Source: Thermoplasmata archaeon
GTDB lineage: Archaea; Thermoplasmatota; Thermoplasmata; Lutacidiplasmatales; UBA184
Direction of reading: 5' to 3'
DNA: 64,000 nt
Assembly: GCA_035945215.1 (NCBI GenBank)
Contig: DASZAJ010000007.1
Location: 136,761 to 200,760 of the forward strand
Shown: positions 9,420-59,111 of the stretch, in pieces
How positions within the stretch are numbered: the first letter of the stretch is position 1
How the letters are laid out: each line of letters opens with the position of its first letter
Notes under the pieces: generated by a model
The model's database searches: none
Seen by the model: only the letters and a program-made list of their open reading frames with translations
Told to the model about the DNA's origin: nothing
Made by a program: the position numbers and the translations under genes

Positions 9420-9421
9420 CG

Positions 9422-11294: not shown

Positions 11295-11296
11295 CT

Positions 11297-11752: not shown

Positions 11753-11766
11753 GGGGTAGCGAGTCG

Positions 11767-12195: not shown

Positions 12196-12231
12196 AGTAT
12201 ATTAGTCCCCACCGGGGTCGAATCGCGAGCG

Positions 12232-13995
12232 ATGGCCGAGGAGGAGATCCCCCGCAACTACAGCTGGGCCATCCCCCTGCTGATCATTGGGGCCACGATC
12301 CTGGGGCTCGACTGGGTCTGGGGCCACCCCACGGCGATCGGCTTCGGGATCACGGCGGCCGTGGTCACGGCGATCCTCGGCGTCTTCTTCCTGGGGCTCA
12401 GCTACGACGGGTCGAAATCGAAGCTCTACGGCCTCAAGCCGCTCACCGGGCGGATGCCCGCGGTGGCCCAGCCGAAGGGCCACGTCCAGTTCCGGACCAA
12501 GATGTTCTGGACCGTCGGGGTCCTGTTGATGTACTTCCTGCTCACGAACATCTACCTCTACGGGGTCGACCAGGCGAACGTCATCGACCTGTTCCAGAGC
12601 TACCGGGCCATCCTGGCGGGGGCTCAGGGGACGCTGATGCACTTGGGCATCGGGCCGATCGTCACCGGCTCGATCATCATGCAGCTGTTCACCGGGGCGA
12701 AGATCATCAACCTCGACCTCACGGACGACGAGGACAAGGGGATGTACCAGGGGACCCAGAAGGTCATGGTCGTCGCGATGATCTTCGTCGAGGCGATCCC
12801 CCAGGTCTACGGATACCTGTCGCCCTCGGCGGCCCTCGTCTCGGGCCTGGGCGCCTCCTCCCCGGGGAACGGGCTTCTGCTCGCCGACGCGATCATCATC
12901 GCCCAACTCGTCTTCGGGAGCTACCTCGTCTTCCTCATGGACGAGGTCGTCTCGAAGTGGGGGATCGGCAGCGGGATCTCCTTGTTCATCGCCGCCGGCG
13001 TCTCCCAGCAGATCGTCCAAGGCACGCTCAACTGGATCCCGAGCCAGCCAGGTCCGGTGAGCGCGGCGAACCCGCCCGCCGGCACCATCCCGAAGGCGTT
13101 CTGGTTCTTCACCCATTATAACGCCCAGCAGATGGCCGGCGGCGGCTGGGAACAGGTCCTGCTCCACTCCCCGAATCCGGTCGTCGCGCTTGCCGGGACG
13201 GCCCTCATCTTCTTCCTCGTCGCCTGGACCGAGTCGACGCGCATCGAGCTTCCGCTCTCCCACGCGGAGGCCCGGGGCGCCCGCGGCCGCTACCCCTTGC
13301 GGCTGATCTACGCGTCGAACATCCCGGTCATTCTCATGTCGGCGCTCCTCGCCAACGTCTCGATGTTCTCGATCCTCTTGTGGAACAACCCGGCGCTCTC
13401 GCATTTCCCCCTGTTCGGCCATCAGTGGTGGGTCGGCTCCTACGCGCCCACGGCGGCGTACGCGACCGCCCACGGCGTCAGCCAGACGACGCCGCTCACC
13501 GGCGGGGCGTACTATCTGTCCACGGTCAACGGTCTCGAGTCCTGGCTTCTGCCCCTGCTGAACGCCCAGACCTACGGCGGCTTCCTCGTCGGTCACTCCT
13601 GGTGGGAGGACCTCGCGCACGTGCTGATCTACTTCTCCGTGATGGTCGTCGGCTCGATCATGTTCGCCCGGTTCTGGATCCAGACGACGAACATGGGGCC
13701 CGAGGCGGTCGCCCGCCAGATCGAGGCGAGCGGGATGCAGATCCCCGGGTTCCGGCGCGAGCCGCGGGTCCTGCGCCGCGTCCTGGAGCGCTACATCCCG
13801 GTCATCACCATCATCTCCGGCGCCGCGGTCGGCGCCCTGGCGGCGGGGGCCGACCTGATCGGCACGGTCGGCAACGCGAGCGGGACCGGGGTGCTGCTCA
13901 CCGTCGGGATCATCATCAACCTGTACGAGGCGATGGGCCGCGAGCAGCTGATGGAGATGAACCCGCTATTGCGCCGCTTCCTCGGCGGCGAGTAG
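12232..13995 (+). CDS. secY: Preprotein translocase subunit SecY, with a ~60-aa N-terminal extension predicted to form two TM helices
   Basis: The canonical SecY N-terminus (SKSKLYGLKPLTGRMPAVAQPKGHVQFRTKMFWTVGVLLMYFLLTNIYLYGV) begins about 60 codons into the ORF. The upstream in-frame segment is hydrophobic (IPLLIIGATILGLDWVWGHPTAIGFGITAAVVTAILGVFFLGL). The ATG is 36 nt after the L15 stop. Confidence 0.9.
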   Translation: MAEEEIPRNYSWAIPLLIIGATILGLDWVWGHPTAIGFGITAAVVTAILGVFFLGLSYDGSKSKLYGLKPLTGRMPAVAQPKGHVQFRTKMFWTVGVLLMYFLLTNIYLYGVDQANVIDLFQSYRAILAGAQGTLMHLGIGPIVTGSIIMQLFTGAKIINLDLTDDEDKGMYQGTQKVMVVAMIFVEAIPQVYGYLSPSAALVSGLGASSPGNGLLLADAIIIAQLVFGSYLVFLMDEVVSKWGIGSGISLFIAAGVSQQIVQGTLNWIPSQPGPVSAANPPAGTIPKAFWFFTHYNAQQMAGGGWEQVLLHSPNPVVALAGTALIFFLVAWTESTRIELPLSHAEARGARGRYPLRLIYASNIPVILMSALLANVSMFSILLWNNPALSHFPLFGHQWWVGSYAPTAAYATAHGVSQTTPLTGGAYYLSTVNGLESWLLPLLNAQTYGGFLVGHSWWEDLAHVLIYFSVMVVGSIMFARFWIQTTNMGPEAVARQIEASGMQIPGFRREPRVLRRVLERYIPVITIISGAAVGALAAGADLIGTVGNASGTGVLLTVGIIINLYEAMGREQLMEMNPLLRRFLGGE

Positions 13996-13998
13996 GCG

Positions 13999-14778
13999 AT
14001 GGCCGAGTCGGCCCCCGCGGCGGAGGCGCCGCTCCCGTCGGCGACCCCGCCCTCCGAGGCCGGCGAAGCGGCGCCGCCGCCGTCGCCGCGGCCACCGCCC
14101 CCGCAGTTCAAGCTCTCGACGTTCGTCCTCACCTTCCTGTTCGTGATCGGGATCCTGATGATCTTCGACACCTCGACGCGCAACGGGGTCGCGACGGTCC
14201 TCGGCCTGGGACTGGCGCCCCTCATCGGCTTCGGCCACCAGTACGTCCTGCTGACGATGTTCTGCGCCGCGCTGATCGAGATGGCCCTCACCGCGCTCGC
14301 GTACAACTGGGCGACCGACTGGGTGAAGACCTCCCGGATCCAGAGCTGGTCGTCGGCGTTCCGCAAGGTCCAGATGGAGGCGCTGCGCTCGGGCAAGAAG
14401 GACCGAGTCGAGGCGCTCAAGCCCCATCAGGCCGAGATCACGCGGCTGTCGAGCGAGCTGTCGATCAGCCAGCTCAAGGGGATGGCCGTGACGTGGTTCC
14501 TGGTGATCGCGATCTACACCTGGGTCGGACTGTTCATCGCGGCGAGCGCCCTCCCGCAGAAGACCGTCGACCTGGGGGGGAGCCTGGTCAACATCGCGAC
14601 GAACGTCCACGTCGGCCCGTTCCCGATCCCGTTGTGGATCCTGCTGTTCTCATTGTACACCTTCCCGCTCTCCTACGTGCTGCGCCGGGCGCTCAAGCAC
14701 TACTCCCTGCGGCGCTACGAGCTCGCCCACCTCGCCGATCCGCCGTCGTCCCCCCCGCCGTCGAGCCCGACCGCGTGA
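13999..14778 (+). CDS. DUF106-family membrane protein (archaeal YidC/Oxa1/EMC3-like insertase homolog)
   Basis: A three-TM protein with a coiled-coil (FVLTFLFVIGILMIFD...MEALRSGKKDRVEALKPHQAEITRL...). It sits at the conserved position downstream of SecY (in other archaea after adk). It has a Pro/Ser/Ala-rich N-terminus. Confidence 0.75.
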   Translation: MAESAPAAEAPLPSATPPSEAGEAAPPPSPRPPPPQFKLSTFVLTFLFVIGILMIFDTSTRNGVATVLGLGLAPLIGFGHQYVLLTMFCAALIEMALTALAYNWATDWVKTSRIQSWSSAFRKVQMEALRSGKKDRVEALKPHQAEITRLSSELSISQLKGMAVTWFLVIAIYTWVGLFIAASALPQKTVDLGGSLVNIATNVHVGPFPIPLWILLFSLYTFPLSYVLRRALKHYSLRRYELAHLADPPSSPPPSSPTA

Positions 14779-28957: not shown

Positions 28958-29500
28958 TCATCCTGGCGCCTCCGATCCATTCCAGCGATACAGATAGACG
29001 TGCCGGGGTCGATCGATCGCGGCCGCGGTCCACCCGGGGATCGGGTGCCAATGGCTAACGATCCTCGTGCCGGGTCGCAATTGCGCTTCAAAGCGGGGAC
29101 GCAGCCGCTCCATCGCGCCGGGCCAAAGGAAACAGGTGACGACGGTCGCCGGGCGCAGATCCACCTCGAACAGGTTGCCCCACCGGATCTCCACCCGCGC
29201 CCGGGGACCTCCAACGGCCCGTCGGACCCGCAAGATGAGCACCCGGAGCGGCTCGACCTCGATCCCTAAGACCTCCGCGCCGCGTTCTCGCGCCGCGCGG
29301 AACAGGATCGCCCCGGTTCCCGCCCCGAGGTCGACGACGCGGTCGGCGGGGCCCACCTCGGCGAATTCGAGCATGCGATCGACGGCCGCCCGGGAAGTCG
29401 GCTGGTAACCGGCGCCGAATAGGAACGAGGCGAAGACGAAGTAGACGACCGACGCCGTTCCGATGACGACGAGGCCGAACAGTTCCCACGAGGGGCTCAT
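28958..29500 (-). CDS. Class I SAM-dependent methyltransferase with an N-terminal TM anchor
   Basis: The internal Met, [28 protein letters not shown], is a TM segment. VVDLGAGTGAILFRAARERGAEVLGIEVEP is SAM-binding motif I. Confidence 0.7.
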   Translation of the reverse strand: MSPSWELFGLVVIGTASVVYFVFASFLFGAGYQPTSRAAVDRMLEFAEVGPADRVVDLGAGTGAILFRAARERGAEVLGIEVEPLRVLILRVRRAVGGPRARVEIRWGNLFEVDLRPATVVTCFLWPGAMERLRPRFEAQLRPGTRIVSHWHPIPGWTAAAIDRPRHVYLYRWNGSEAPG

Positions 29501-30477
29501 CCTCGGCCCCGCGGGCGGGGGCGGATCTGGGCCCGGAGGATGCGTTCGGCCGCGGTGTGCGGGTCGACCTCCCGCGCGACCACCCGGTCGACGAGGCGGA
29601 TGAACTCGGGTTCCTCCCGCAGGAGGCCCCCTACTTCGCGCTCGGTCCGCTCCATCAACAGTCCGAGGATCTCCGCCGAGAGCCGCCGCCGATCGATCTG
29701 CGCGCGGGCCCCCTCCGCATCGAGGAACTGTTCGTGGGCGCCGATGGCCGCCCAGAGCTCGGGGATCCCTCGAAGCTCCCGGGCGGAGGCGACGACGACG
29801 CGGGGCCGCCATGCCGCGCCGACGGGCGCCAGGCCGACCAGCTCCCGAAGGTCCTTGGCGGCGAGGTCCGCCCCGGGCAGGTCGGACTTGTTCACGCAGA
29901 AGACGTCAGCGATCTCGAATAGGCCGGCCTTGAGCGACTGGACCTCGTCGCCCAAATGCGGGACGAGCACGACCACGGAGGTGGACGCCACCTCCCGGAT
30001 CTCCACGTCGACCTGGCCGGAACCGACGGTCTCGACCAGGATGACGTCCATGCCGAACGCGTCGAGGAGTCGGGTGACCTCCAAGGTAGCCGCGGCGATC
30101 CCGCCGAGGTGGCCCCGACTGGCCATCGAGCGGATGAACACCCCCGGATCGCCGGGGGTGCGCTCGATCCGGATCCGGTCGCCCAGCACCGAACCTCCTG
30201 TGAAGGGGCTCGATGGGTCGACCGCGATGACCCCCACCGTCTGGCCCAGGGACCTTAGGTGGGCGAGCAGCGCGTTCAGGAGGGAGGACTTCCCCACGCC
30301 AAGGGGTCCCGCCAGTCCGATCACACGGGCCCGCCCCGTCATCGGATACAGCGCCCGCAGCGTCGCCACCGCGCGGGGGTCCCGGTTCTCCACCGCGCTG
30401 ATGAGCCGGGCCAGCGCCCGGCGGTCCTTCGCGAGGATCCGGCGCGCCGCTAGGGGCAGTGGCACCCGGTTCCTCAT
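29497..30477 (-). CDS. meaB: Methylmalonyl-CoA mutase-associated GTPase MeaB/ArgK (G3E family)
   Basis: [17 protein letters not shown] is a P-loop, with ...VETVGSGQ... and ...VNKSD.... It is adjacent to the MCM B12-binding subunit. Confidence 0.88.
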
Positions 30478-30890
30478 GCCCGATGTCGGGCGATACCCCG
30501 GGCCGTCGACACGATCTCCTGGAGGGACGTGCCCGGCCCGAAGACGGCCTTCAGTCCGATCTTGCGGAGCCGCTTCACATCCTCGTCGGGGATGATCCCG
30601 CCGGCAAAGACCGGAATGTCCATCGCCCGCCGCTTCTTCAACAGCGCCAGCACTCGGGGGAACAGGGCCATGTGCGCCCCGGAGAGAATGGAGAGACCGA
30701 TCAGATCGACGTCCTCCTCGATGGCCGACTCGACGATCTCCTCGGGCGTCTGGCGCAATCCGGCATAGATGACCTCCATCCCCGCGTCCCTCAGGGCCCG
30801 GGCGACGACCTTCGCTCCGCGGTCGTGGCCATCGAGGCCGGGTTTCGCGATCAGTACCCGGACCGGGGCGCCGCGAGCGATCCGCGCCAT
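30474..30890 (-). CDS. Methylmalonyl-CoA mutase small subunit (cobalamin-binding domain)
   Basis: [45 protein letters not shown] has the DxHxxG B12-binding motif. The internal Met start is at 139 aa. The tool ORF extends upstream spuriously. Confidence 0.88.
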
Positions 30891-30982: not shown

Positions 30983-31894
30983 TCAGATGTACGCCAGCGC
31001 GTCGAAGATGAGGTTCCCGAACACCGAACCGACGATCGCCCCGGCGAGCAAGAGGACCAAGAAGGGCACCTGCGGGGTCACCCAAACTCGTTGGACTCCT
31101 TGCGCGCGCAGCTCGGACTGCTGTTGGAGGCGCTGGGATCGATCCTCCTCCGCCGTCTCGGCCTCCTCGTCGCTCGACGCGAAGGTGGGATCCTTCAGCC
31201 AAACGAACCGGTCGGGGAGGTCGTCGACGGGGATCCGATACCCGGTGAAGCCCGTCCCGATCGTGAACTCCTTCCGGCGGAGGTTGACGATCGCCAAGGC
31301 GACCGGAACACTGATCGACAGGAGGGCCGCGTTCATGAGCAGCGTGAGCGAGAACGGATACACCGCGAGGATCCCCGTGGCGGTGGGGGGAGCCAGCAGC
31401 CCCGAGGTCGCCTGGAGGGGAAGCACGATCCCGGCGGAGATCAGCGCCTTCGCGTCGGCGCCCCCATAAAGCAGGCGCGCCTCGAACAGACCCCGCCCGA
31501 GGAGGATGCTCGCGAACGCCGCGATCACCGGCAGCGGAAGGCCCGTCGAGCCGACGCCGCTGCGAACTCCGATCACGCCCAGGTACGTCCCCACCGCCAG
31601 GAACCCCACGATCTCGATGTACCCAGGGGCCCGGTCGTCCCAGCGTTCGATCGCGAGGTCCCACGGGTAAAGGTGCTCGAGCGCGAGCGCGGAAACCGCC
31701 GCCCAGGTAAGCAGCGCGGTCGTTCCCTCGGGCGCGAGCAGAACTGCGCCGAGGAAAACGCCCACGGCTCCCAACGCCTGCCAGAGGTGATCGGAAACCT
31801 CTCGATACCTCCAGTCGTAGTAGGCAGCGACCCCGAACCCGACGAGGAGGACCGCGGTCTCCCCCATCATCGTCTCGGAAGGCCCCAGCCCCAT
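30983..31894 (-). CDS. A24-family archaeal prepilin/preflagellin peptidase (FlaK/PibD-like), with a C-terminal extra domain
   Basis: A polytopic membrane protein. Two conserved Asp are in [11 protein letters not shown] and [10 protein letters not shown] (a GxGD-like motif). The C-terminal ~100 aa is soluble plus a final TM. Confidence 0.75.
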
Positions 31895-32017
31895 CCGTTC
31901 GCGACCTTCCCGGCCGGTTCATGGCGGGTTCCCCCCCATAAGACCGAGGTCGTGCGCGCACGGAGCGAAGTCCGCCCAGACCGGAGATCGCGCCGCCCCG
32001 CCGCCCTCTTTCCAATG

Positions 32018-32392
32018 TCACGCCGACCGGCCGGGCAGCGTTCGCAAGGCTTTGCGAAGCGCCACCAGGGCCAGCGACGGCGCCGGCGGATCGCTCGGGT
32101 GGGACCCGGGGGGCGCCCCGGGCGCCGACCGCAGGTCCGGACCGTCAAGGCGGCGGCGCGACGCTCGGGCGACCTCGGTCAATATCTCCCCTTCCCGGCA
32201 GTAGGAAACACCCCTAGTAAGGCACGAGCGGCAGTCTCCTAGGTGCCGATCCCCTTCGAGGAAGGCGACCGAGAAACGCCGCTGGGCATTCTCTCGCCGT
32301 CGTTCGGCCAGCAGGTCTCTCCAGGTCGGAGGATTCCGGGCCGCGGTTTCGGGAAGCGCCATCGCGAACGGGGGCCGATCTCGCTGCGTCAT
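32018..32392 (-). CDS. Hypothetical protein
   Basis: A 124-aa ORF starts at an ATG directly abutting an AT-rich promoter island. There is no family match and a Pro/Arg-rich C-terminus. It may be spurious. Confidence 0.3.
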
Positions 32393-32450
32393 TGGCCTAT
32401 AGATAGTTAGAACAGAATATATAGAAATGGCACACGCAATATATTGTTGC
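32393..32450. promoter_or_regulatory. AT-rich island (divergent promoter region) with two TATA-like elements
   Basis: atagatagttagaacagaatatatagaaatggcacacgcaatatattg is below 30% GC in a ~70% GC genome. It lies between the divergent hypothetical gene and the rps6e region. Confidence 0.55.
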
Positions 32451-32591
32451 TCGGGTGTCGACGGCCCGCCTAGCTTGCCCGATCGGATCCGACCGGAGCG
32501 TCCACTTCGGGAGCCGGATAGGCGGCCCCGGGTGGCGGGGGAGCCCGGAGGGCCCAGTTTCCCTCCACTCCCGACGGTGCGCCTCGGCAAG

Positions 32592-32601
32592 CTATTTAAA
32601 C
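32592..32601 (+). promoter_or_regulatory. TATA box (ctatttaaac) about 34 nt upstream of the rps6e ATG
   Basis: An AT-rich element at canonical archaeal spacing from the S6e start codon. Confidence 0.55.
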
Positions 32602-32634
32602 GAACTCAAACTGGCGCGCGGCTGGTCCCCCTTC

Positions 32635-33012
32635 ATGGTGGAGTTCAAGCTCGTGATCGCCGATGCGGCGACCTCGTACGCCCGGACCGTCAGCGATCCG
32701 CAATCCGCCGGTTTCCTCGGCAAGAGGATCGGGGAGACGATCGGCGGGGAACTCGTGGGCCTCAGCGGGTACACCTTCCGGATTTCGGGGGGGACGGACA
32801 AGAGCGGCTTCGCGCTTCGGCCCGAGATCCCCGGGGCCCGACAGGTCCGGGTCTTCGTCGGAGAAGGGTTCGGATTTCATGCGCCGCGCCGGGGGATGCG
32901 GCGCCGAAGGACCTTCCGGGGAAGCGCCGTGAGCGAGGAGACCGTACAGATCAACTTGGTCGTGGAAAAGAGGGGCCAGAAGCCTCTCGCGGAGTCCCCC
33001 GCCCCGACATGA
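32635..33012 (+). CDS. rps6e: 30S ribosomal protein S6e (eS6)
   Basis: MVEFKLVIADAATSYARTVSDPQSAGFLGKRIGETIGGELVGLSGYTFRISGGTDKSGFALRPEI is archaeal S6e. The tool ORF starts further upstream at a GTG, but the internal ATG matches the family N-terminus. Confidence 0.9.
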   Translation: MVEFKLVIADAATSYARTVSDPQSAGFLGKRIGETIGGELVGLSGYTFRISGGTDKSGFALRPEIPGARQVRVFVGEGFGFHAPRRGMRRRRTFRGSAVSEETVQINLVVEKRGQKPLAESPAPT

Positions 33013-34241
33013 AGGTCCCTCGTCAGCCCGAGGTTAACATCGGGCTGGTCGGGCACGTCGACCACGGGAAGACGACGCTCACCCAGGCGCTGACGGGCGA
33101 GTGGACCGACCGGCACTCCGAGGAGCTCCGTCGGGGGATCTCGATCAAGCTCGGCTACGCCGATGCGGCGTTCTACCGGTGTCCCGGCCTCGGCGAACCC
33201 GAGTGCTTTCGGACCGAGCCGGCCTGTCCCGAGGGCGCCGAGGCGAAATTCCTCCGGGCCGTCTCCTTCGTCGACGCGCCGGGCCATGAAACGCTGATGG
33301 CCACGATGCTTTCGGGCGCGGCGATCATGGATGGGGCCCTGCTCCTCGTCGCCGGCAACGAAAAGGTCCCGCAGCCGCAGACCCAGGAGCACCTCTACGC
33401 GCTCGATATCATCGGCGTTCGCAAGGTGGTCGTCGTTCAGAACAAGATCGATCTGGTCAGCCCCGAGAAGGCGGAGGAGAACTATCGTCAGATCGTCGAA
33501 TTCCTCCAGGGCTCCCCGATCGCCTCCGCTCCGATCGTTCCGGTCTCCGCCAACCACCGGGTCAACATCGACGCGCTCATCGCCACGATCCAGGAGACGA
33601 TCCCGACCCCCCAACGTGACGCGACCAAGCCCCCCCTCATGTACATCGCCCGATCCTTTGACGTGAACCGGCCCGGGATCCCCGGCGGCAAACTTCGCGG
33701 AGGGGTCCTCGGCGGATCCCTTGTGCAGGGCAGCCTCAAGGTGGGCGACGAGATCGAGATCCGACCGGGCCATGTCGGCCTCACCGACGGTCGGGCCGAA
33801 GCCCTCCAGACCCGCGTCGCGGCCCTGATCTCGGGGGGCCAGGAGATCGACGTACTGCAGCCCGGCGGCCTGGCGGCGATCGGAACTACGCTCGACCCGG
33901 CGCTGACCAAGGCGGATGGCCTCACCGGCCGCCTGGTGGGGACTCCCGGCACGCTCCCGCCGGTGAGCCAGAAGATCCGGATCAAGGCGACGCTGCTCGA
34001 CCGGGTCCTCGGGGTCCAACGGGAGACGAAGGTGGAGAAGATCCGGACGAGCGAGATGCTCGCCGTCACGATCGGCACCACCGTGGCGGCCGGGAAGGTC
34101 ACCAGCGCCCGGGGCGATGAGGTCGAGCTGACCCTCAACCGGCCGGTCACGGTTTTCCCGGGGAGTCGCGTTGCGATCTCGCGCAAGCTGACCGCCTGGC
34201 GATTGATCGGCTACGGCCTGGTCGAGGGGAGCGGGAAGTGA
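33009..34241 (+). CDS. eif2g: Translation initiation factor aIF2 gamma subunit
   Basis: NIGLVGHVDHGKTTLTQALTG is the G1 motif. FVDAPGHE and VVQNKIDL are further GTPase motifs. It has a zinc-ribbon-like insertion with three Cys. It overlaps the S6e stop (ATGA), and the S6e-aIF2gamma pairing is conserved. Confidence 0.92.
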   Translation: MKVPRQPEVNIGLVGHVDHGKTTLTQALTGEWTDRHSEELRRGISIKLGYADAAFYRCPGLGEPECFRTEPACPEGAEAKFLRAVSFVDAPGHETLMATMLSGAAIMDGALLLVAGNEKVPQPQTQEHLYALDIIGVRKVVVVQNKIDLVSPEKAEENYRQIVEFLQGSPIASAPIVPVSANHRVNIDALIATIQETIPTPQRDATKPPLMYIARSFDVNRPGIPGGKLRGGVLGGSLVQGSLKVGDEIEIRPGHVGLTDGRAEALQTRVAALISGGQEIDVLQPGGLAAIGTTLDPALTKADGLTGRLVGTPGTLPPVSQKIRIKATLLDRVLGVQRETKVEKIRTSEMLAVTIGTTVAAGKVTSARGDEVELTLNRPVTVFPGSRVAISRKLTAWRLIGYGLVEGSGK

Positions 34242-34420
34242 AGGCGGAGCTCATGGAGATCCTCTGCTGCCCGATGTGCCGGGGGCCGCTCGCCCTGACC
34301 GTCCAGTCGCAATCGCAACGGGAGATCGAACGGGGCAATCTGCGCTGCGCCGCCTGCCGACTGGACTACCCGATCGAAGACGGCATTCCGAACCTGCTCC
34401 CACCCGACGAGCGCGACTAG
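34238..34420 (+). CDS. Trm112-like zinc-ribbon protein
   Basis: A 60-aa protein, MEILCCPMCRGPLAL...LRCAACRLDYPIEDGIPNLLP, is the Trm112p/DUF343 signature. Confidence 0.75.
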   Translation: MKAELMEILCCPMCRGPLALTVQSQSQREIERGNLRCAACRLDYPIEDGIPNLLPPDERD

Positions 34421-34445
34421 CTCAGAATCGTCGGGGACCCGTCGC

Positions 34446-35072
34446 TCACGCCGGGTCCAGAATCGCCCGGCAGGGCCCGCCGTCGCCCCCCTGGATCCGC
34501 AGCGGGAGGCATCGCAGAATATAGTCCGGGCGGACCACTTCCGAGAGGAGCAATCCTTCCAGCAGCACGATCCCCGCCCCGAGCAGGGCCCGGTGGACGG
34601 GGAAGGAGACGGTCGGGTCCGACTCCACCGAGAGGGCATCGATCCCCACCAGGCGCACTCGTCGTTCGATCAGCTCGCGAGCCGCCGGCGGGGAGAGATC
34701 GACGAAATCGGGAAAGAAACCCTCTCCCCGGGCCCATCGGGCCGAGTTCGACGTCTGGAACAGCACCCGATCGGTCCCTTCGGGGATCGCGGTGAGATCC
34801 GAGGGAAAGATCGACGACTGGCCCTCGGGTACCCGGACGACGCGGCACGGACCGTTCAGGGCGGCGAGATCGATCTGATCGAGATTCGCGCGCCCGGGCA
34901 AGAAATGGCTGGGCGGATCGACGTGGGTCCCGCTGTGGGTCCCCATCTCGAGGACCGAGACGTTGAACTGGGCCCCCCGGGCGGTCGAATAGACCGACTC
35001 GATCCGGATCGGCGGGTCGCCGGGATAGCTCGGCGTCGACGGCCCCAACGGCATCGAGATATCGATCGCCAC
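34446..35072 (-). CDS. Putative cyclase family protein (kynurenine formamidase-like)
   Basis: MGTHSGTHVDPPSHF is the HxGTHxDxPxH metal-binding motif of the cyclase family. Confidence 0.75.
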   Translation of the reverse strand: MAIDISMPLGPSTPSYPGDPPIRIESVYSTARGAQFNVSVLEMGTHSGTHVDPPSHFLPGRANLDQIDLAALNGPCRVVRVPEGQSSIFPSDLTAIPEGTDRVLFQTSNSARWARGEGFFPDFVDLSPPAARELIERRVRLVGIDALSVESDPTVSFPVHRALLGAGIVLLEGLLLSEVVRPDYILRCLPLRIQGGDGGPCRAILDPA

Positions 35073-35152
35073 CTTCGGCCTCCCTGCCCCGCCCGCGCTG
35101 CGGCCGGAGGTGGGACCCGCACCCGTAAAGTCTCTCCGGGGGTCGGACGACT

Positions 35153-35869
35153 GTGGTGAGCCTGTACTTACCGGCGCTTCTCGTCGCCTTCGTGATCACG
35201 GTGACCGAGATGACCGAGGTCGTGGCGGTGGTCTTCGCCTTGAGTTCCGACGCCCGATCGCTCGGGCATGGGGCCGCCGGAGCCGCGGCCGGAACGGGCG
35301 TCGTGGCCGCCCTGGCGCTGGGTTTCGGCGCCCTCCTGATCTCCCTTCCCCGGTCGGACCTGCTTTGGGGGGCCTCGATCGTGCTCTTCGCCTTTGGGAT
35401 ATTCCTGTTCCGCAGCACCCTGCGCTCGTACCGACGGCATCGGTCGGCCGGAACGGGCCGGTCCGGTCCGGTCGGAACGACCGGGAATGAACGCGTTCTC
35501 CAGTTCGGCGGGGGGTTTGTCGTGGGGGCCATCGAGGCGACGGAAGCGGTCATCGTGCTCGTGGCCCTCGCGGCGGCGGGCTACGGCCTTTCGGCGGTGG
35601 CGGGGGCCCTGCTCGGGGGCGCGATCCTCGTCGCGGCGGCGCTGCTCGTTCACCAGCGGATCCGGCGGATCAAGGTGCCCACGCTCAAACTCGGTGCCAC
35701 GGCCATGTTGTTCACCTTCGCGCTCTTCTGGGGCGGGGAGGCGGCGAACGTGACCTGGCCGGGTTCGGACCTGTTCCTCATCCCGATCTTCCTGGGGGCG
35801 ATTCTCGCGGTCCGAGGAACTGTGGAGGCGCTTCTCCGACGGGACCTTCGGGTCGAGGCGAACGGTTAA
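35153..35869 (+). CDS. Integral membrane protein with an internal two-repeat architecture (uncharacterized)
   Basis: About 7 TM. The two halves each start with an acidic TE motif in a helix (VTEMTEVVAVVFAL and AIEATEAVIVLVALA). No confident family. Confidence 0.5.
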   Translation: MVSLYLPALLVAFVITVTEMTEVVAVVFALSSDARSLGHGAAGAAAGTGVVAALALGFGALLISLPRSDLLWGASIVLFAFGIFLFRSTLRSYRRHRSAGTGRSGPVGTTGNERVLQFGGGFVVGAIEATEAVIVLVALAAAGYGLSAVAGALLGGAILVAAALLVHQRIRRIKVPTLKLGATAMLFTFALFWGGEAANVTWPGSDLFLIPIFLGAILAVRGTVEALLRRDLRVEANG

Positions 35870-35894
35870 GGCCCGACGCCCCGAGCGATTCGGC

Positions 35895-37253
35895 ATGCGG
35901 CGCCGCTCGTCCGAGGACGACGAGCCCGAGCCGGAAGACGGCGACGAGGAGCCGGATGATGAGCCGTCGGGACCGCCGCGGAACCGCACCCGTCTGACGC
36001 GGGCCCGCCGGGCGCTGCGCCCCTGGAACGCGACCTCAAAGGCCCCCCCTCCCTCCGAACCCCCCGATCGGATCGACGAGGAGTCGGAGGATTCCGAGGA
36101 GCCCCCGCCGGGGCTCTTCCACCGGGTCCGCGCGCCGGTGTTCTTCCGAGCGCGGGACACGGTCTGGTTCGAGCCCCTGGTCGCTCTCGCCATCGTCGTC
36201 CTCATCCTCGTATCGTTGTACGCGTACACGACCAACTGGCCGCCCGCCTATGTCATCGAGTCGGACAGCATGCAGCACGGGGCCACCGACCAGGTCGGCC
36301 TCATCAACACGGGCGACCTGGTGCTGGCGCAGCGAGTGAACGCCTCCCTGGTCACCCCCTACTTCCCGGCGGAATCCTCTGGCTACCGGACTTACGGCGA
36401 GTACGGGGACGTGATCCTGTACCACCCGAATGGAGACCCAAACCAGGCGCCGATCATCCATCGCGCGATCCTCTCCATCGAATACGACGCCTCGAACCAC
36501 ACCTACTCGATACCCGCCTTGAGCGGTCTGGCGTGCGGCAATGCCCCGGGTGCGGCCTATCGCGTAGCCGCCCATCTTTCCGGATGCGGAGCCACGGGCG
36601 TGACTGGCGAGCTCACGCTGTACGGAGTCGGCTGGACCCACGCGATCGTGAACATCTCCCTCACCCAGGGCGTCTTGGGGGCCCATTCGGGCTTCCTGAC
36701 GATGGGCGACAACAACTACCTGCCCGGGAACCCAACGCAGGGGGAACCCGATCAACCGGTCTTCAGCACGCTTGTCGAGCCGGGCTGGGTAGTGGGCGTG
36801 GCCCGCGGGATGATACCGTGGTTCGGCGCCCTGAAGCTCCTGCTTTCCGGGGACGCCGGGATGGTGCCCGCCCAGTCCTGGGAATGGCTCGCCATCACCC
36901 TCATCGGCACCCTCCTGGCGGCCATGGGCATCCACTACGCCCTTCGGGCCGAAGGGATCGAGGACGAACGCCGGAAGGCCGATGAGGAGGAGGAAGAGGA
37001 TGAGCGGGAGGAGGAGGGCCGACCGCCCAGACGGTGGCGGACCTTGGTTCCGTGGCGAAGATCCCGCGACGATGATGACGCCGATGAGGAGGAGGAAGCT
37101 CGGCCACGACCTCGGAGAGGTAGGGCGCCTCCGGTGGAGGTTCGAAGGAGCGGGACCGATCGAAGAGCCCACCGCGGCGGTCGACCCAGGCCCTCGGTCG
37201 GTCGGCGGCGCGCTCGACGTCATCAACCCCCCTCCCGTTCCGACGAACTCTAG
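35895..37253 (+). CDS. Type I signal peptidase (S26/Sec11 family), with acidic N-terminal and charged C-terminal tails and a ~60-aa insertion
   Basis: Box B is ESDSMQHG (Ser), box C is GDLVL, box D is IIHRAI (His), and box E is MGDNNY (Asp). There are N- and C-terminal TM anchors. The N-terminus is EDDEPEPEDGDEEPDDEP and the C-terminus is EEEEEDEREEEGRPP followed by an R-rich stretch. Confidence 0.75.
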   Translation: MRRRSSEDDEPEPEDGDEEPDDEPSGPPRNRTRLTRARRALRPWNATSKAPPPSEPPDRIDEESEDSEEPPPGLFHRVRAPVFFRARDTVWFEPLVALAIVVLILVSLYAYTTNWPPAYVIESDSMQHGATDQVGLINTGDLVLAQRVNASLVTPYFPAESSGYRTYGEYGDVILYHPNGDPNQAPIIHRAILSIEYDASNHTYSIPALSGLACGNAPGAAYRVAAHLSGCGATGVTGELTLYGVGWTHAIVNISLTQGVLGAHSGFLTMGDNNYLPGNPTQGEPDQPVFSTLVEPGWVVGVARGMIPWFGALKLLLSGDAGMVPAQSWEWLAITLIGTLLAAMGIHYALRAEGIEDERRKADEEEEEDEREEEGRPPRRWRTLVPWRRSRDDDDADEEEEARPRPRRGRAPPVEVRRSGTDRRAHRGGRPRPSVGRRRARRHQPPSRSDEL

Positions 37254-37440
37254 GCCCTGGTCGCCGGGCGGCCGGAACGGGACTAGGGTGGACCGGTTTC
37301 GCGGACCGTCCCGTAGCAGGTCAAAGCTGGTTGGAATCTTCGGAGGGCTGGCTCCGAGTGCGGGGAGCGGAAAACGATGCTTGACCCAAGTGAAGAAGGG
37401 TGGGAAGGAAAAGGTTGGACACCCGGTCGTCGGGTCTTCC

Positions 37441-38010
37441 CTACGGTATCGCCGACTGGATCGAGCCGGAGTACGATCCGGTCCCGATGATGTTCAGCGA
37501 GTACCCCTGTCCCGCGATGCTCGCGGCGGTGATCAGCACCAGCTGGTCGCCGCTTGAGATCTGGGACGTTAGGGTGAGCGTTGCGCAGGCCGTCGGGTGC
37601 GGCGGGGTCGTCGGGGGACCGGCGGTCCAGCCCGACGCCGCCACGTAGTTCCCGACCGCGCAGTTGGTCACGTCTACTAGGGTGACCGCGTTGAACGCCT
37701 GGATGGTTCCCGCCGAGTTGACCAGCTGGAACTTCAGGCTGTTCGCGGTGACCCCGGCGCTGGCCGACTGGATCGAGATCGTATAGTTGAACCCATACGC
37801 CCCGTTCGGGCCGGCCGTCGCGCGCGAGACGGCCATGGCGCTACCCAACGGCGTGTTGCCCGGCCCTCGGGTCAGCCCCGAGATCAGGACGTACAGCACC
37901 GCGGCCAGCACTACCGTGATCGCCACGAGCAAGATCGTGGCGATGATCGGCGAAACTCCCCGCTCCGACTTCTTTCGCCAGGACCCACCCCGGCTTCTCC
38001 GCTTCGTCAT
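37441..38010 (-). CDS. Archaeal type IV pilin-like protein with a class III signal peptide (Pilin_N/DUF11-type)
   Basis: MTKRRSRGGSWRKKSERG|VSPIIATILLVAITVVLAAVLYVLISG is the canonical prepilin-peptidase processing motif plus a hydrophobic N-terminal helix. The C-terminal domain is Gly/Ser/Thr/Ala-rich, with one NYT sequon. Confidence 0.85.
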   Translation of the reverse strand: MTKRRSRGGSWRKKSERGVSPIIATILLVAITVVLAAVLYVLISGLTRGPGNTPLGSAMAVSRATAGPNGAYGFNYTISIQSASAGVTANSLKFQLVNSAGTIQAFNAVTLVDVTNCAVGNYVAASGWTAGPPTTPPHPTACATLTLTSQISSGDQLVLITAASIAGQGYSLNIIGTGSYSGSIQSAIP

Positions 38011-38042
38011 CTTCGAACCTTCCTTCTATCCCCGTCCAGTTC

Positions 38043-38606
38043 CTAGGGGATCGCCGACTGGATCGAGCCGGAGTACGATCCGGTCCCGATGATGTTCAGC
38101 GAGTACCCCTGTCCCGCGATGCTCGCGGCGGTGATCAGCACCAGCTGGTCGCCGCTCGAGATCTGGGACGTCAGGGTGAGCGACCCGCACACCGCCGGAT
38201 GGGGTGGCGTGGTGGGCGGACCCGCAGTCCAGCCCGAAGCCGCTACGAAGTTCCCGACCGCACAGTTGGTCACGTCAATCAGGGTGACCGCGTTGAACGC
38301 CTGGATGGTTCCCGCCGAGTTGACCAGCTGGAACTTCAGGCTGTTCGCGGTGACGCCCGCGCTCGCCGACTGGATCGAGATCGTATAGTTGAACCCATAC
38401 GCCCCGTTCGGGCCGGCGGTGGCCCCCGAAACCGCCATGGCGCTGCCGAGCGGCGTGTTGCCCGGGCCCCGGGTGAGCCCGGAGATCAGGACGTACAGCA
38501 CTGCCGCGAGCACCACGGTGATCGCCACCAGCAGGATCGTCGCGATGATTGGCGATACCCCTCGCCCGGGCCGCTTTCTCCAAGTCCTCCCTCTCAACGT
38601 CGCCAT
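38043..38606 (-). CDS. Archaeal type IV pilin-like protein, tandem paralog of 37441-38010
   Basis: Its translation after MATLRGRTWRKRPGRG|VSPIIATILLVAITVVLAAVLYVLISG is nearly identical to the upstream copy. The internal Met is chosen by analogy with the first copy. The tool ORF has a 37-aa spurious-looking extension. Confidence 0.82.
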   Translation of the reverse strand: MATLRGRTWRKRPGRGVSPIIATILLVAITVVLAAVLYVLISGLTRGPGNTPLGSAMAVSGATAGPNGAYGFNYTISIQSASAGVTANSLKFQLVNSAGTIQAFNAVTLIDVTNCAVGNFVAASGWTAGPPTTPPHPAVCGSLTLTSQISSGDQLVLITAASIAGQGYSLNIIGTGSYSGSIQSAIP

Positions 38607-39065
38607 GTTTGGTTTCGCTCCGTTCAGGGCATTGCCCCGCAGGCGGAGTGTTTGCACAGGGGTGGTATTTGAATCCGTCGGCTTTTTTCGGCACTTTGTC
38701 GAATTGGACATCGGCATTAGTCGAATGCGTGTGAAGGGGTATCGTACGCCACACCCGTTTCGACGAGAGGACGGAGGAGGCGGCGTCGGACGGGAAGGGT
38801 CGCCGGAGGGCCCCCCGCCACCCTCGACCCTTGACCGGCCGCCCGCGATCGCGCTTGGGATGGAGCACCCCAGATGCGATCCGTCGCCAGCGGGCGGCTT
38901 GGGTATGCGATGGGAATCCCGGCCAACGAATAGTAACCGGGAACTCTCGGACCGAGGTGGGTCCGGTGGGTGCCGGACCCATCGCCGATCGCTCTCGGGA
39001 CACGGGGCTGCTCGACGGATCTCGTAACGGTTATCGGGCCACGCCGATGCAACGGGACAACGTTC

Positions 39066-40622
39066 ATGGAATTCAAGTGGCAGGTTCTCGGGGTCGTCTG
39101 CATCGGGAGCCTGATGGGCTCAATCGATAGCACGGTCCTCCTGATCGCGTTTCCGGACATCGCGAGGGAACTGAACGCCGACCTCGTGACGATGGTCTGG
39201 GTGATCATGATCTACATCCTCATGGGGACGGCGCTCGTCCTATCGCTGGGTCGCCTGTCGGACCTGAAAGGTCGCAAGCGGCTGTACAACGCGGGTTTCC
39301 TGGTGTTCGTGGCCGGGAGCCTGCTCTCGGGGCTCTCGCAGACCGGTCTCGAACTCGTCGCGTTCCGGGGACTCCAGGGGATCGGGGGGGCGATGTTGGT
39401 CGCCAACTCGTTCGCGATCCTGTCCGATGCGTTCCCGCCCAACGAGCGGGGTCGCGCCTTCGGGGTGAACTCGGTCGTATGGGGAACGGGATCAGTCGTT
39501 GGGTTCGCCCTCGGCGGCTTCATTCTCGCCGTGACGACTTGGCGGTGGATCTTCTTCATCAACGTCCCCATCGGAGTCGTCGCGATCGCCCTGGCCGCAG
39601 TGGTCTTGCGGGAGTCGGTGACCCCGGACCCCCGCGACACCTTCGATTTTGCCGCGGCGACTCTCTTCGTCTTCGGCCTCGCCCTATTTCTCCTCGGAGT
39701 GACCGAGGGGATCCTCAACGGGTGGTCGGCCCCGATCACGTGGGTCCCGCTGGCGCTTGCCGTGCCGACCTTCGCCGGATTCCTCGCCTGGGAGGGGTTC
39801 GTGAGCCGGGACCCGATCCTTCCCTTCTCGTTGTTCCGGGACTGGCTGTTCAGTGCGTCGCTACTCTCCTCGGTCCTGCAAGGGGTCGCGCTGTTCGCGA
39901 CCAACTTCCTGCTGATGGTGTACTTCCAGGGGATCCGAGGGGTCTCGGTGATCACGGCGGCCTACCTCCTGATCCCGCTATCGATTGCGCTCGGGGTCGT
40001 CGGCCCGTTCGGTGGACGGCTCTCCGACCGCTACGGGGCCCGCGTTATCTCGACGATAGGACTCCTGGTCCAAGCGAGCGCGCTATTCGGCCTCGCCACC
40101 CTCAACGCCTCGACTTCGTTATGGACGGTGGGAACCTGGGAGGCCGTTCTCGGTGTGGGCGGCGGGCTATTCTTCCCGGCCAATACCGCGTCGATCATGG
40201 CGGGGGTCCCCCGGGCGAAGTACGGGGTGGCGTCCGGGGTGATGATGACCCTGCGCAATTCGTCGATGGCCCTCAGCTTCGCAGTGGGACTCATCGCCGT
40301 CACCGCACGTCTCCCCACCGGCGTCGCGGCGGCGCTGTTCGGCGGCGCCTTCGGACCGGCGCTGGTCGCTCGCATCGGCCTGAGCCCGGCCGGCCTCGAC
40401 CTCGTCTTCCTGGCGGGGATGCGGCTCGCTTTCGAGGTCTCCGGCGCTTTTGTGGTCGTCGCAGCGCTCTTTTCAGCGCTCCGCGGGAAGGAACGGAGAG
40501 CGGGGGAGTTCATTATCGTTCACAGCCCGGCGGTGCGAGCCCCGGCGCGCTGGAGGGAACCTACGCCGCTCGAGTCTACGGCCCCGGGCGGCCTCGCCCG
40601 ACTCCCGCCGGCCGAGCCCTAG
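39066..40622 (+). CDS. MFS transporter (DHA2/EmrB-like, 14 TM)
   Basis: MEFKWQVLGVVCIGSLMGSIDSTVLLIAFPDIARELNADLVTMVWVIM...GRLSDLKGRKRLY is MFS motif A. Confidence 0.85.
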   Translation: MEFKWQVLGVVCIGSLMGSIDSTVLLIAFPDIARELNADLVTMVWVIMIYILMGTALVLSLGRLSDLKGRKRLYNAGFLVFVAGSLLSGLSQTGLELVAFRGLQGIGGAMLVANSFAILSDAFPPNERGRAFGVNSVVWGTGSVVGFALGGFILAVTTWRWIFFINVPIGVVAIALAAVVLRESVTPDPRDTFDFAAATLFVFGLALFLLGVTEGILNGWSAPITWVPLALAVPTFAGFLAWEGFVSRDPILPFSLFRDWLFSASLLSSVLQGVALFATNFLLMVYFQGIRGVSVITAAYLLIPLSIALGVVGPFGGRLSDRYGARVISTIGLLVQASALFGLATLNASTSLWTVGTWEAVLGVGGGLFFPANTASIMAGVPRAKYGVASGVMMTLRNSSMALSFAVGLIAVTARLPTGVAAALFGGAFGPALVARIGLSPAGLDLVFLAGMRLAFEVSGAFVVVAALFSALRGKERRAGEFIIVHSPAVRAPARWREPTPLESTAPGGLARLPPAEP

Positions 40623-40646: not shown

Positions 40647-41591
40647 GTGGGATGGACCGCGCATCAGAAGTCTTTTCTCTCCGGTCCCGTCCTCCGCCCG
40701 GGGCGATCCTTGCACGTCATCGGTGGTCCGGCGTCGACCGCGCTGGCGGAACGGATCTCCCGAGAGCTCGGCAACGCGCCATTTGCGATCCCGTTCTCCA
40801 AGCGCTTCCCCGATGGAGAGCTCTACGTACGCATCGGGGGTCGATTGGGCGACGAGGAGGTCGTGCTCGTGCAGTCGAGCCGGACCGACCAGGACCTGAT
40901 CGAACTCTTGCTCCTCGAGGACGCGATCCGAGAGGCTGGGGCGCGCAAGCTCGTCGTAGTGGTCCCCTACTTCGGCTACTCTCGTCAGGACCGGTCGTTC
41001 TTTCCGGGCGAACCGGTCAGCGCCCGCGCGCTCTCCCGTCATATCGAGCTCCAGGCGGACGCCGTCGTCACCGTCGACATGCACTCCCCGCTCACGATGC
41101 AGTCGTTCGCGAAACCGGTCTTCGAAGCGAGCGGGATCCCGGCGATCGCCCGTCTTCTGAAGGAGCGGCCGATCGACATGCTCGTCTCACCCGACAAGGG
41201 CGGGGTCGATCGAGTGCGCCGGATGGCCGAGCTCCTGGGTCGACCTTGGATGGCGCTCGAGAAGAAGCGGATCGATAGCGACCGGGTCGAACTGGCGCTT
41301 CCCGCCAGCCCACCCATCGATCTCGAAGGTAAGCAGGTCGTCATTGTCGATGATGTGATCTCGACCGGGGGCACGATCGTCGAGGCGGCGAAGCTGCTCA
41401 GGCGGTACCGCGTTCGGGCCGTCTCGGCGGCGTGCACACACGGGTTGTTCCTTCGTGACGCCTTCGAGCGGATCAAGGCGGTGACCGATGAGCTGTTCTC
41501 GACGGACACCCTGCTCAATCCGGCCGAGAAGGCCTCCGTCGCCCCGGACGTCGCCCAGATCCTCAAGCGTGAGGTTCCCCGACTCCCCTAG
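40647..41591 (+). CDS. prs: Ribose-phosphate pyrophosphokinase (PRPP synthetase)
   Basis: VVVVPYFGYSRQDR, then ...VVIVDDVISTGGT is the PRPP-binding site. The start may be a downstream TTG (LHVIGG). Confidence 0.85.
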   Translation: MGWTAHQKSFLSGPVLRPGRSLHVIGGPASTALAERISRELGNAPFAIPFSKRFPDGELYVRIGGRLGDEEVVLVQSSRTDQDLIELLLLEDAIREAGARKLVVVVPYFGYSRQDRSFFPGEPVSARALSRHIELQADAVVTVDMHSPLTMQSFAKPVFEASGIPAIARLLKERPIDMLVSPDKGGVDRVRRMAELLGRPWMALEKKRIDSDRVELALPASPPIDLEGKQVVIVDDVISTGGTIVEAAKLLRRYRVRAVSAACTHGLFLRDAFERIKAVTDELFSTDTLLNPAEKASVAPDVAQILKREVPRLP

Positions 41592-57498: not shown

Positions 57499-58716
57499 CT
57501 AGGTCGCTCCCGCGGCGGCGCCGAGACGCCGGAGTTCATTTAGCTTTGCCACGCGCTCGCCGCCGAGAAGGCCGCATTTGAGCCCGGCCGAGCCGAACCC
57601 GACCGCGAGGTGCGTGAGCCAGCTTTCCGGGGTCTCCCCCGAGCGATGGGAGGTCACGGTCTCCAGCCCGCGCGCCCGGGCGAGATCGACCGTGGCGAAC
57701 GTGTCCGTGAGCGTCCCGACCTGGTTCACCTTGATGAGAACCGCGTTCGTCGATCGTCGCTCGATCCCTTGGCGCAGCCGCTCCACCCGGGTCGTGTAGA
57801 GGTCGTCCCCGACGACCAGCGCCTTGCTCCCCACAGCGCGGGTGAGGGCCGCGAACGAATCGAAGTCCTCCTCGTCGAACGGATCCTCCACGTACGCGAT
57901 CCCGTATCGGTCCACGAGGTGGCTGACGAACCCGACCTGCCCCTCCGCGTCGAGCGTCTGTTCCTGGTACCGGTACCGCCCGCCCTCGTAAAACTCGCTC
58001 GCCGCGAGGTCGACGCCCGGCTTCACCGGATAACCGACGGCATCGGAGGCGCGCTCGCACGCTTCGGCCAGCAGCTCGATCGCCTCGACGTTGCCGATCG
58101 ACGCGACCCAACCGCCCTCATCCCCCCGGCCGAGCGCCCGCCCGGGATACTTGGCGCGCAAGGCTTCGCCGGCCGCGCGGTGCGTGGCCAGGGCCGCGCG
58201 AACCGCCTGCTCCGGCGTCGCGCCGGGCGCGAAGGCGAGGAATTCTTGGATATCGGGGCCGCCGATCGCGTGCCGGCCCCCGTTCAAGCAGTTCCCGACG
58301 ACCGCTGGGAATCGGCCGACCGGGACTCCGGGACGGCGCAGTAGGTCGGCGAGCGGCCGGTGGAGCGCCTGGGCCCTCGCCAGGGCAGCGGCCACCGAGA
58401 TCGCGGTCGCCGTGTTCCCCCCGATCCGCTCGAATCGGGCGGTCCCGTCGAGGGCGTGCAGGGCGGCGTCAACGGGGGCGGGGTCGTCGAGGGAGATCCC
58501 ACGGAGTTCGGTGTCGATCCGGGCGGATTGGGAGAGCGCCGCGGCCACCCCGCCGTAGGGGAACGCGGCCACCTCGTGCACTCCGGTGCTCGCGCCGCTC
58601 GGGGCCGTGGCGATCCCGACGCCGCCGACCTCGTCGGAGCTGACGGTCGCTTCGACGGTTTCGGCGCCGCGGCTATCGTAGACCATCCGGAGGGCGACCG
58701 ATCGGACCGAGGTCAC
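57499..58716 (-). CDS. eno: Enolase (phosphopyruvate hydratase)
   Basis: LIKVNQVGTLTDT and SHRSGETPESW are enolase signature motifs. Confidence 0.92.
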   Translation of the reverse strand: MTSVRSVALRMVYDSRGAETVEATVSSDEVGGVGIATAPSGASTGVHEVAAFPYGGVAAALSQSARIDTELRGISLDDPAPVDAALHALDGTARFERIGGNTATAISVAAALARAQALHRPLADLLRRPGVPVGRFPAVVGNCLNGGRHAIGGPDIQEFLAFAPGATPEQAVRAALATHRAAGEALRAKYPGRALGRGDEGGWVASIGNVEAIELLAEACERASDAVGYPVKPGVDLAASEFYEGGRYRYQEQTLDAEGQVGFVSHLVDRYGIAYVEDPFDEEDFDSFAALTRAVGSKALVVGDDLYTTRVERLRQGIERRSTNAVLIKVNQVGTLTDTFATVDLARARGLETVTSHRSGETPESWLTHLAVGFGSAGLKCGLLGGERVAKLNELRRLGAAAGAT

Positions 58717-59108: not shown

Positions 59109-59111
59109 CGC

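Follow-up and report, generated by a model that had tools for sequence, protein, structure and literature searches.

A 64,000-nucleotide stretch of the genome of a Thermoplasmata archaeon placed in the Lutacidiplasmatales (positions 136,761 to 200,760 of contig DASZAJ010000007.1, assembly GCA_035945215.1; the whole stretch is called the window below) encodes two tandem pilins, an A24-type prepilin peptidase and an S26-like signal peptidase. Family searches, structure models and comparison with related loci make it probable that this locus supplies the pilins and a peptidase of an ordinary archaeal type IV pilus system whose genes are scattered over the genome; the host is a soil archaeon of the Lutacidiplasmatales type, predicted to be non-motile. 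The original prediction, made from the letters of the window, had spoken of a minimal or dispersed pilus system; a dispersed system is also what we arrive at, whereas nothing found here speaks positively for a minimal one.

The tandem pilins and their putative transcription unit

A six-frame translation of the window yields two open reading frames (ORFs) with class III signal peptides and no others. These are the two pilin genes, which lie on the minus strand; with the elements around them and the two peptidase genes, they occupy the following positions.

38666-38673, minus strand: TATA-box-like element TTCAAATA, a putative promoter element by its conservation
38043-38606, minus strand: pilin 2 (upstream gene), precursor of 187 amino acids
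38011-38042, minus strand: spacer of 32 nt between the pilin genes, with a purine-rich GGAAGG before the second ATG
37441-38010, minus strand: pilin 1 (downstream gene), precursor of 189 amino acids
37392-37418, minus strand: T-rich, terminator-like stretch CCAACCTTTTCCTTCCCACCCTTCTTC downstream of the pilin pair, of putative function
35895-37253, plus strand: S26-like protein, 452 amino acids
30983-31894, minus strand: A24 peptidase, FlaK/PibD-like, 303 amino acids, ~6 transmembrane helices

Both precursors have a basic leader that ends in RG and is followed by VSPIIATILLVAITVVLAAVLY, and both show the signal-peptide signature of Pilin_N and TIGR02537 members, which calls for a basic leader, G, A or S at -1 and a cleavage site ahead of a hydrophobic helix of ~20 residues; here it reads RG followed by VSPIIATILLVAITVVLAAVLYVLISGL. 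They score 30.8 and 32.6 bits (the latter for pilin 2) against Pilin_N (Pfam PF07790; gathering cutoff 25.2) and 52.3 and 46 against TIGR02537 (cutoff 20), and the predicted cleavage between RG and VSP leaves a mature protein of 171 amino acids in each case. The ORF of pilin 2 is longer than the gene as listed (38043-38717, minus strand); we placed the start at the ATG at 38606 because the TATA-like box falls inside the longer ORF and because a public protein (P0001) that is 93% identical to pilin 1 has 187 amino acids, the same length as pilin 2 from this ATG. Exact-sequence look-ups of both pilins returned no match. The two proteins are 93% identical to each other; in the mature coding part (516 nt) they differ at 52 positions, with 40 synonymous and 7 nonsynonymous codon changes, which indicates that both copies are kept by purifying selection.

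Homologues number 1,475 at E <= 0.001; among the matches listed, they are full-length proteins of 171-204 amino acids, and nearly all come from metagenome-assembled genomes (MAGs) of Thermoplasmata and from soil or peat metagenomes. Residues 20-56 are almost wholly invariant across 47 sequences of otherwise 45-91% identity, the pattern expected of a helix that would build a filament core. The AlphaFold model (predicted local distance difference test, pLDDT, 84.8) consists of one N-terminal α-helix and a β-rich globular head, an immunoglobulin (Ig)-like sandwich; it thus has a lollipop architecture and resembles archaeal filament subunits, with a Halobacterium archaellin as top Foldseek match at a low TM-score of 0.35. 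Among solved structures, the best sequence match is CdiPB of the Cuniculiplasma divulgatum CdiP pilus (CdiPA/CdiPB, 8REY, E 5.9e-6; PMC12448462), whose N-terminus is nearly identical (VSPIIATILLIAITVVLAA), although the heads are weakly similar and mature CdiPB has 135 amino acids; Natrinema PilA2 (8GI2) was also matched. The original prediction had further considered a use of these proteins outside a pilus, for example in substrate binding. We find no positive support for such a use, and a mature protein of this size, made of a helix and an Ig-like sandwich, looks like a filament subunit.

Tandem pilin pairs recur across the lineage, with head-domain identities of 47-94% between the copies, and in several genomes the copies are closer to each other than to any orthologue, a pattern that points to repeated duplication or to gene conversion, which are frequent among major filament subunits. 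Two short-read Logan contigs of the same organism, L006 (SRR12347823) and L007 (SRR12347822), were located through the S26 protein; both break off 224 nt beyond its stop codon. L006 truly ends at the edge of the near-identical tandem pilins, and L007 was checked in one orientation only. In short-read MAGs, the number of tandem pilin pairs may be underestimated.

Neighborhoods of pilin homologues came from exact-protein look-ups and from scanning the GTDB species representatives, and the loci syntenic with the window share the signals that flank the pilins. TTCAAATA is present as a single copy in the window; in 15 of the 16 syntenic loci the first pilin ATG is preceded, at a distance of 52-62 nt, by TT(C/T/G)AAATA, and all 10 exact copies of TTCAAATA in 318 kb of syntenic loci stand at this pilin-upstream position. 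Orthologous spacers between the pilins measure 25-42 nt in nine of 10 other loci and carry similar AGGA/GGAGG stretches, and the last pilin's stop codon is directly followed by CAACCYTTTCC and a T run in every syntenic locus examined. This conservation suggests that the pilin pair is transcribed, and cotranscribed, as a unit of its own, in which the TATA-like box would act as promoter and the T-rich stretch as terminator.

A partly palindromic element, GTCGA-N8-10-TCG(T/A)CAA, is conserved ~15-35 nt upstream of the TATA-like box; it occurs upstream of the first pilin in loci L001-L019 and in the window at 38674-38740 (minus strand), where it includes ...GATGTCCAATTCGACAAAG..., and it may serve a regulator of the pilins as its operator. 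A GC-rich inverted repeat is likewise conserved in the 5' leader of the pilin unit.

The prepilin peptidase and the signal peptidase

The A24 protein scores 36.1 bits on Arc_PepC_II (cutoff 29.9), 20.1 bits on Peptidase_A24, below the cutoff of 26.5, and 41.8 bits on the NCBIfam FlaK equivalog model, far below the cutoff of 330; we take it as a member of the A24B-type prepilin peptidase family, though by these scores not as a FlaK equivalog. Its sole match in the PDB is M. maripaludis FlaK (3S0X, E 3.5e-4), found along three collinear stretches, and the catalytic Asp motifs of the two proteins align (YYDWRYREV with QDFRSREI, and GGADAK with GGGDGK). The catalytic residues of this polytopic protein are D27 and D147, the second within the motif G-x-(G/A)-D-x-K. 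In the syntenic orthologues, LYGGADAKA (D147) is essentially invariant, with one GAADAKA variant, and YxDWRxREV (D27) is kept wherever the N-terminus is complete. The likeness to FlaK and PibD covers both Asp motifs and the Arc_PepC_II domain as well as a C-terminal WVTPQ(I/V)P segment; however, the two Asp residues are ~120 residues apart in the window protein and ~60 apart in FlaK, and the window organism is without archaellins, so that the substrates would be pilins. We predict that the A24 enzyme is the maturase of both tandem pilins.

The other peptidase gene encodes a protein identical to a public sequence (P0121) that NCBI names "S26 family signal peptidase" and that belongs to a family of more than 560 members, all ~430-480 amino acids long and all from Thermoplasmata. 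No curated model reaches its cutoff on this protein: Pfam gives no match, and TIGR02228, the archaeal signal peptidase I model, is matched weakly with 20 bits (cutoff 51.85). The same model is weakly matched by 28 of 30 family members, on which Pfam gives spurious weak matches only. A profile of the family, however, matches human SEC11A (E 0.0017) over the segment from GDNN to ARG-x-P-x-G, and the catalytic boxes are invariant in the 30 members, with the Ser box S125-M126, the His box H189-R190, and the GDNN/Asp box G271-D-N-N274 and D286. With Sec11-type S26B enzymes (human SEC11A, 7P2P) the protein shares the SM, HR and GDNN boxes, the ARG-x-P-x-G that follows them and an N-terminal transmembrane anchor, one of two predicted transmembrane helices. 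It differs in its length of 452 amino acids as against ~180-200, in an ~80-amino acid insert that lies between the His and GDNN boxes and contains two invariant Cys, and in long, charged N- and C-terminal tails with PSGPPR and GGRPRPxV motifs. The AlphaFold2 model is poor (pLDDT 60.6), and Foldseek with this model returned nothing meaningful. Judged by motifs and profile, we accept the protein as a divergent Sec11-type signal peptidase I. Such long charged cytoplasmic tails are unusual for a signal peptidase; the N-terminal motif reads ...DDEPSGPPR... (within 35895-36150) and the C-terminal GGRPRPxV (within 36950-37253) is near-invariant.

The genes and coordinates of the original prediction agree with our ORF listing and family searches. 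Its two tandem pilins with class III signal peptides are recovered by Pilin_N, TIGR02537 and the six-frame scan; its FlaK/PibD-like A24 peptidase by Arc_PepC_II above cutoff, the FlaK match and both Asp motifs; and its S26 signal peptidase I by the invariant motifs, the SEC11A profile match and the NCBI name.

The search for a pilus motor

Neither a PilB/FlaI-type ATPase nor a PilC/FlaJ-type platform is encoded in the window, an absence that the original prediction had pointed out and that a list of Walker A motifs, a motif scan and an inventory of membrane proteins all bear out. The six-frame Walker A list comprises a short P-loop ORF at 14802, aIF2γ, an ABC ATPase, MeaB and two spurious matches in noncoding frames; the P-loop ORF we take to be cytidylate kinase, from reading its sequence rather than from a family-library check. 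No T2SSE Asp-box or His-box motif occurs in the window. Every window protein with at least four predicted transmembrane helices is identified (SecY, a YidC-like protein, MMPL, A24, OFeT, MFS, an aquaporin of the MIP family and an ABC-2 permease), and the other long ORFs are housekeeping genes. An operon of the canonical Aap/Ups/Epd type, in which pilins cluster with ATPase and platform, is absent from the window and, in 87 related loci, from the <=10 kb on either side of the pilins. Over 1.28 Mb (the 87 loci, from ~80 related genomes, plus the window) we found no secretion-type ATPase motif with a regular expression combining Walker A, a PDxxxxGExR box and a His box, a scan that is motif-based and not based on hidden Markov models; therefore, pilins in the Thermoplasmata do not as a rule lie beside the motor.

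Lutacidiplasmatales genomes have ~69% GC and a size of ~2.1 Mb (PMC9287336), and the window has ~69-70% GC throughout its length. The window amounts to ~3% of such a genome, so that the absence of motor genes from it carries almost no information; it is expected, not unusual. In Cuniculiplasma divulgatum, 862 bp separate cdiPA from cdiPB, and the operon of the ATPase and platform is ~500 kb away (PMC12448462). The window resembles that system in its Thermoplasmata host and in having two close pilin genes with neither ATPase nor platform beside them; it differs in that the Cuniculiplasma pilins are a dissimilar major and minor pair, whereas the window pilins are near-copies of each other. In Haloferax volcanii, none of pilA1-6 is coregulated with the biosynthesis genes, all the pilins are served by one A24 enzyme of the PibD type, and the pili are used for adhesion, not swimming (PMC4371748); the PilA1-6 paralogues have in common a hydrophobic domain that hardly varies and whose sequence type is also that of the window pilins. 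That organism is a haloarchaeon whose six pilin genes are scattered and do not form a tandem pair, and its pilin function and machinery are established by experiment, as against the predicted ones here.

The same absence could also mean that the pilins and the prepilin peptidase operate without PilB/PilC machinery, as membrane-anchored adhesins, as a short pseudopilus or with an unknown motor. Such a view draws on the lack of an ATPase or platform from the window and from the pilin neighborhoods of the 87 loci, on the archaellum genes reported absent from the order (PMC9287336), and on H. volcanii ΔpilB3-C3 cells, in which membrane-associated pilins give some adhesion (PMC4371748). However, the DNA inspected covered 64 kb of this genome and <=20 kb per relative; PilB and PilC alone among the biosynthesis components are described as required universally (PMC4371748); a near-invariant N-terminal helix is the signature of a polymerizing subunit; and remote machinery has the direct precedent of Cuniculiplasma (PMC12448462). 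We therefore regard operation without a motor as unlikely. For the order as a whole, the corresponding claim, that Lutacidiplasmatales-type Thermoplasmata lack any PilB/PilC machinery yet keep conserved, duplicated pilins and an A24 peptidase, seems to us distinctly unlikely; if it were true, the pilins would act without a canonical motor, as membrane-anchored adhesins or via an unknown system. The description of the order (PMC9287336, main text and supplements) and a survey of the Thermoplasmatota do not mention pili, pilins or secretion ATPases, and among the papers searched none names both "Lutacidiplasmatales" and "pili".

Gene order, remaining alternatives and significance

The pilin pair, the S26 gene and the A24 gene are set among genes of other functions, which were identified from the ORF listing and family searches as follows.

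28958-29500, minus strand: methyltransferase
29497-30477, minus strand: MeaB GTPase (279 bits), downstream of the B12-binding subunit gene
30474-30890, minus strand: methylmalonyl-CoA mutase B12-binding small subunit, directly downstream of A24 (precomputed Pfam match in L006)
within ORF 32455-33012, plus strand: ribosomal protein S6e, called as 125 amino acids
~33009-34241, plus strand: aIF2γ
34238-34420, plus strand: Trm112
34446-35072, minus strand: cyclase
35153-35869, plus strand: OFeT permease
38970-40622, plus strand: MFS transporter
40647-41591, plus strand: phosphoribosyl pyrophosphate (PRPP) synthase

The S26 gene and pilin 1 are convergent, with 187 nt between them, and the A24 gene lies 5.5 kb from the pilin pair and 92 nt upstream of the B12-binding subunit gene, on the same strand, which is followed by MeaB and the methyltransferase. 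The original prediction placed the A24 gene within a methylmalonyl-CoA mutase operon. This holds for the small subunit and MeaB, which are directly downstream, but not for the large subunit, which is found at 59112-60869, 28 kb from both. The large subunit gene (672 bits) adjoins a second ORF within 58713-60869 (minus strand), presumably a glyoxalase-type epimerase by the look of its sequence rather than by a family-library scan. Elsewhere in the window, at the end of a ribosomal protein cluster, SecY is unusually long (587 amino acids, with the SecY domain at residues 134-565; 12232-14778, plus strand) and is directly followed by the gene of an EMC3/TMCO1-type (YidC-like) insertase.

The original prediction had treated the pilins, the S26 gene and the A24 gene as one surface module, and a true module could mean, for example, that S26 processes or regulates the pilins or another pilus component. 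In its favor, pilin and S26 are adjacent in at least 13 genomes in which pilin identity falls to ~35-40%, and members of the S26 family carry an inserted domain as well as cytoplasmic tails that are unusual and conserved. Yet the genes between the three surface loci are those of aIF2γ, S6e, Trm112, the cyclase and the OFeT permease, and the conserved order comprises the whole block: PRPP synthase, MFS, one or two pilins, S26, OFeT, cyclase, aIF2γ, S6e, A24, B12-binding subunit and MeaB, collinear in at least 13 genomes (L001, L002, L004, L010, L011, L013, L015, L016, L019, L021, L032, L033 and L036). The flanking housekeeping genes are thus as conserved as the surface genes, and because genes of translation and nucleotide metabolism keep the same order, the block is best taken as inherited collinearity and not as a functional cluster. 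In one locus (L056; isolate YP2.bin30, JAKATE010000025.1) an inversion spanning S26 to MeaB turns the S26 end away from the pilins, which abut MeaB instead, and in ~25 full-length loci from other Thermoplasmata neither S26 nor A24 is close to the pilins of this family. The genes are, moreover, convergent, each pilin pair having its own putative promoter and terminator. It also counts against a module that the cleavage of class III signal peptides is the task of A24 enzymes rather than of S26. We give a functional module very little probability; the S26 gene is more plausibly a convergent neighbor of the pilins whose position reflects inherited gene order rather than functional coupling. Several of the syntenic MAGs (AcS1-3, SubAcS15-120) are Lutacidiplasmatales genomes of PMC9287336.

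Outside the syntenic block, pilins of the same family occur in two further contexts. In other Thermoplasmata and in Methanomassiliicoccales MAGs, a KaiC-type ATPase (PF06745, 179 bits in L054) stands directly upstream of one to three pilins (L050, L054, L055, L057, L061, L066, L068, L069, L071-L074, L082, L083, L086 and L087); 15 of these 16 loci have a second, degenerate KaiC/DUF7504-like protein between KaiC and the pilins, and no secretion-type ATPase was found near the pilins in them. The second context, present in 21 loci (L012, L017, L018, L020, L027-L031, L034, L035, L038-L040, L043, L046, L047, L049, L053, L062 and L075) and, among these, in the Lutacidiplasmatales MAG SubAcS13-64 (L020), is marked by a 364-amino acid membrane protein with a C-terminal zinc ribbon, of a family (P0241) with 76 members. 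L012 and L017 (L017 at 8844-13090) have a 283-amino acid pilin-like gene, a pilin of ~195 amino acids, a pilin-like gene of ~410 amino acids and the zinc-ribbon protein, and in 15 loci of this context a divergent ribbon-helix-helix-like gene of 175 amino acids lies beside the pilin.

That the two genes encode bindosome-type substrate-binding proteins with class III signal peptides is scarcely credible, given a single Ig-like domain and a mature length that, judged by the Sulfolobus bindosome, is far too small for a solute-binding protein. Archaellins, to which TIGR02537 (whose span includes archaellin as well as pilin N-termini) and the top Foldseek match might point, are rejected with no greater hesitation, because Pfam assigns Pilin_N and not the archaellin family and because the order is reported without archaellum genes (PMC9287336).

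For the preferred reading, the pilin and peptidase part of a dispersed type IV pilus system, some observations are unfavorable. Neither the ATPase nor the platform was located for this genome or its close relatives in the window and pilin-flanking DNA searched. The archaellum genes reported missing from the Lutacidiplasmatales include the FlaJ-type arCOG (PMC9287336), and with it one possible platform is gone. Finally, the pilin-S26 adjacency and the A24-B12-MeaB adjacency are very stable within the clade, the latter being kept in all syntenic loci that reach that far, the inverted L056 included; we attribute this stability to general collinearity, an explanation that leaves some small room for a functional tie.

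We propose that in this dispersed system the TATA-like box, ~60 nt upstream of the first ATG, drives the tandem pair as one unit whose transcript would end at the T-rich stretch. The genes would supply near-identical subunits of the major-pilin type, each with a basic leader, an RG-VSP cleavage site, a hydrophobic N-terminal helix that is invariant and an Ig-like head that varies. Sec would insert the precursors, A24 would cut them after Gly-1, and a PilB-type ATPase and a PilC-type platform, not located here and presumably encoded elsewhere in the ~2.1-Mb genome, would polymerize them into adhesive pili. The S26 protein, as the divergent Sec11-type signal peptidase I of the lineage, would act on ordinary class I signal peptides, and the place of the A24 gene upstream of the mutase small subunit and MeaB would likewise be inherited gene order and not functional coupling.

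The significance of the locus goes little beyond annotation, and it would become of wider interest only if whole genomes of the order prove to be without a PilB/PilC motor. As annotation, it gives the pilin unit a cleanly defined putative promoter and terminator and places on record a lineage-specific, unusually long signal peptidase that is probably of the Sec11 type. For the biology of the Lutacidiplasmatales, it suggests that a soil order which is abundant and uncultured, and for which a lack of motility is predicted, has two adhesion-type pilin genes that are conserved and probably under a strong promoter, together with the peptidase that would mature their products.

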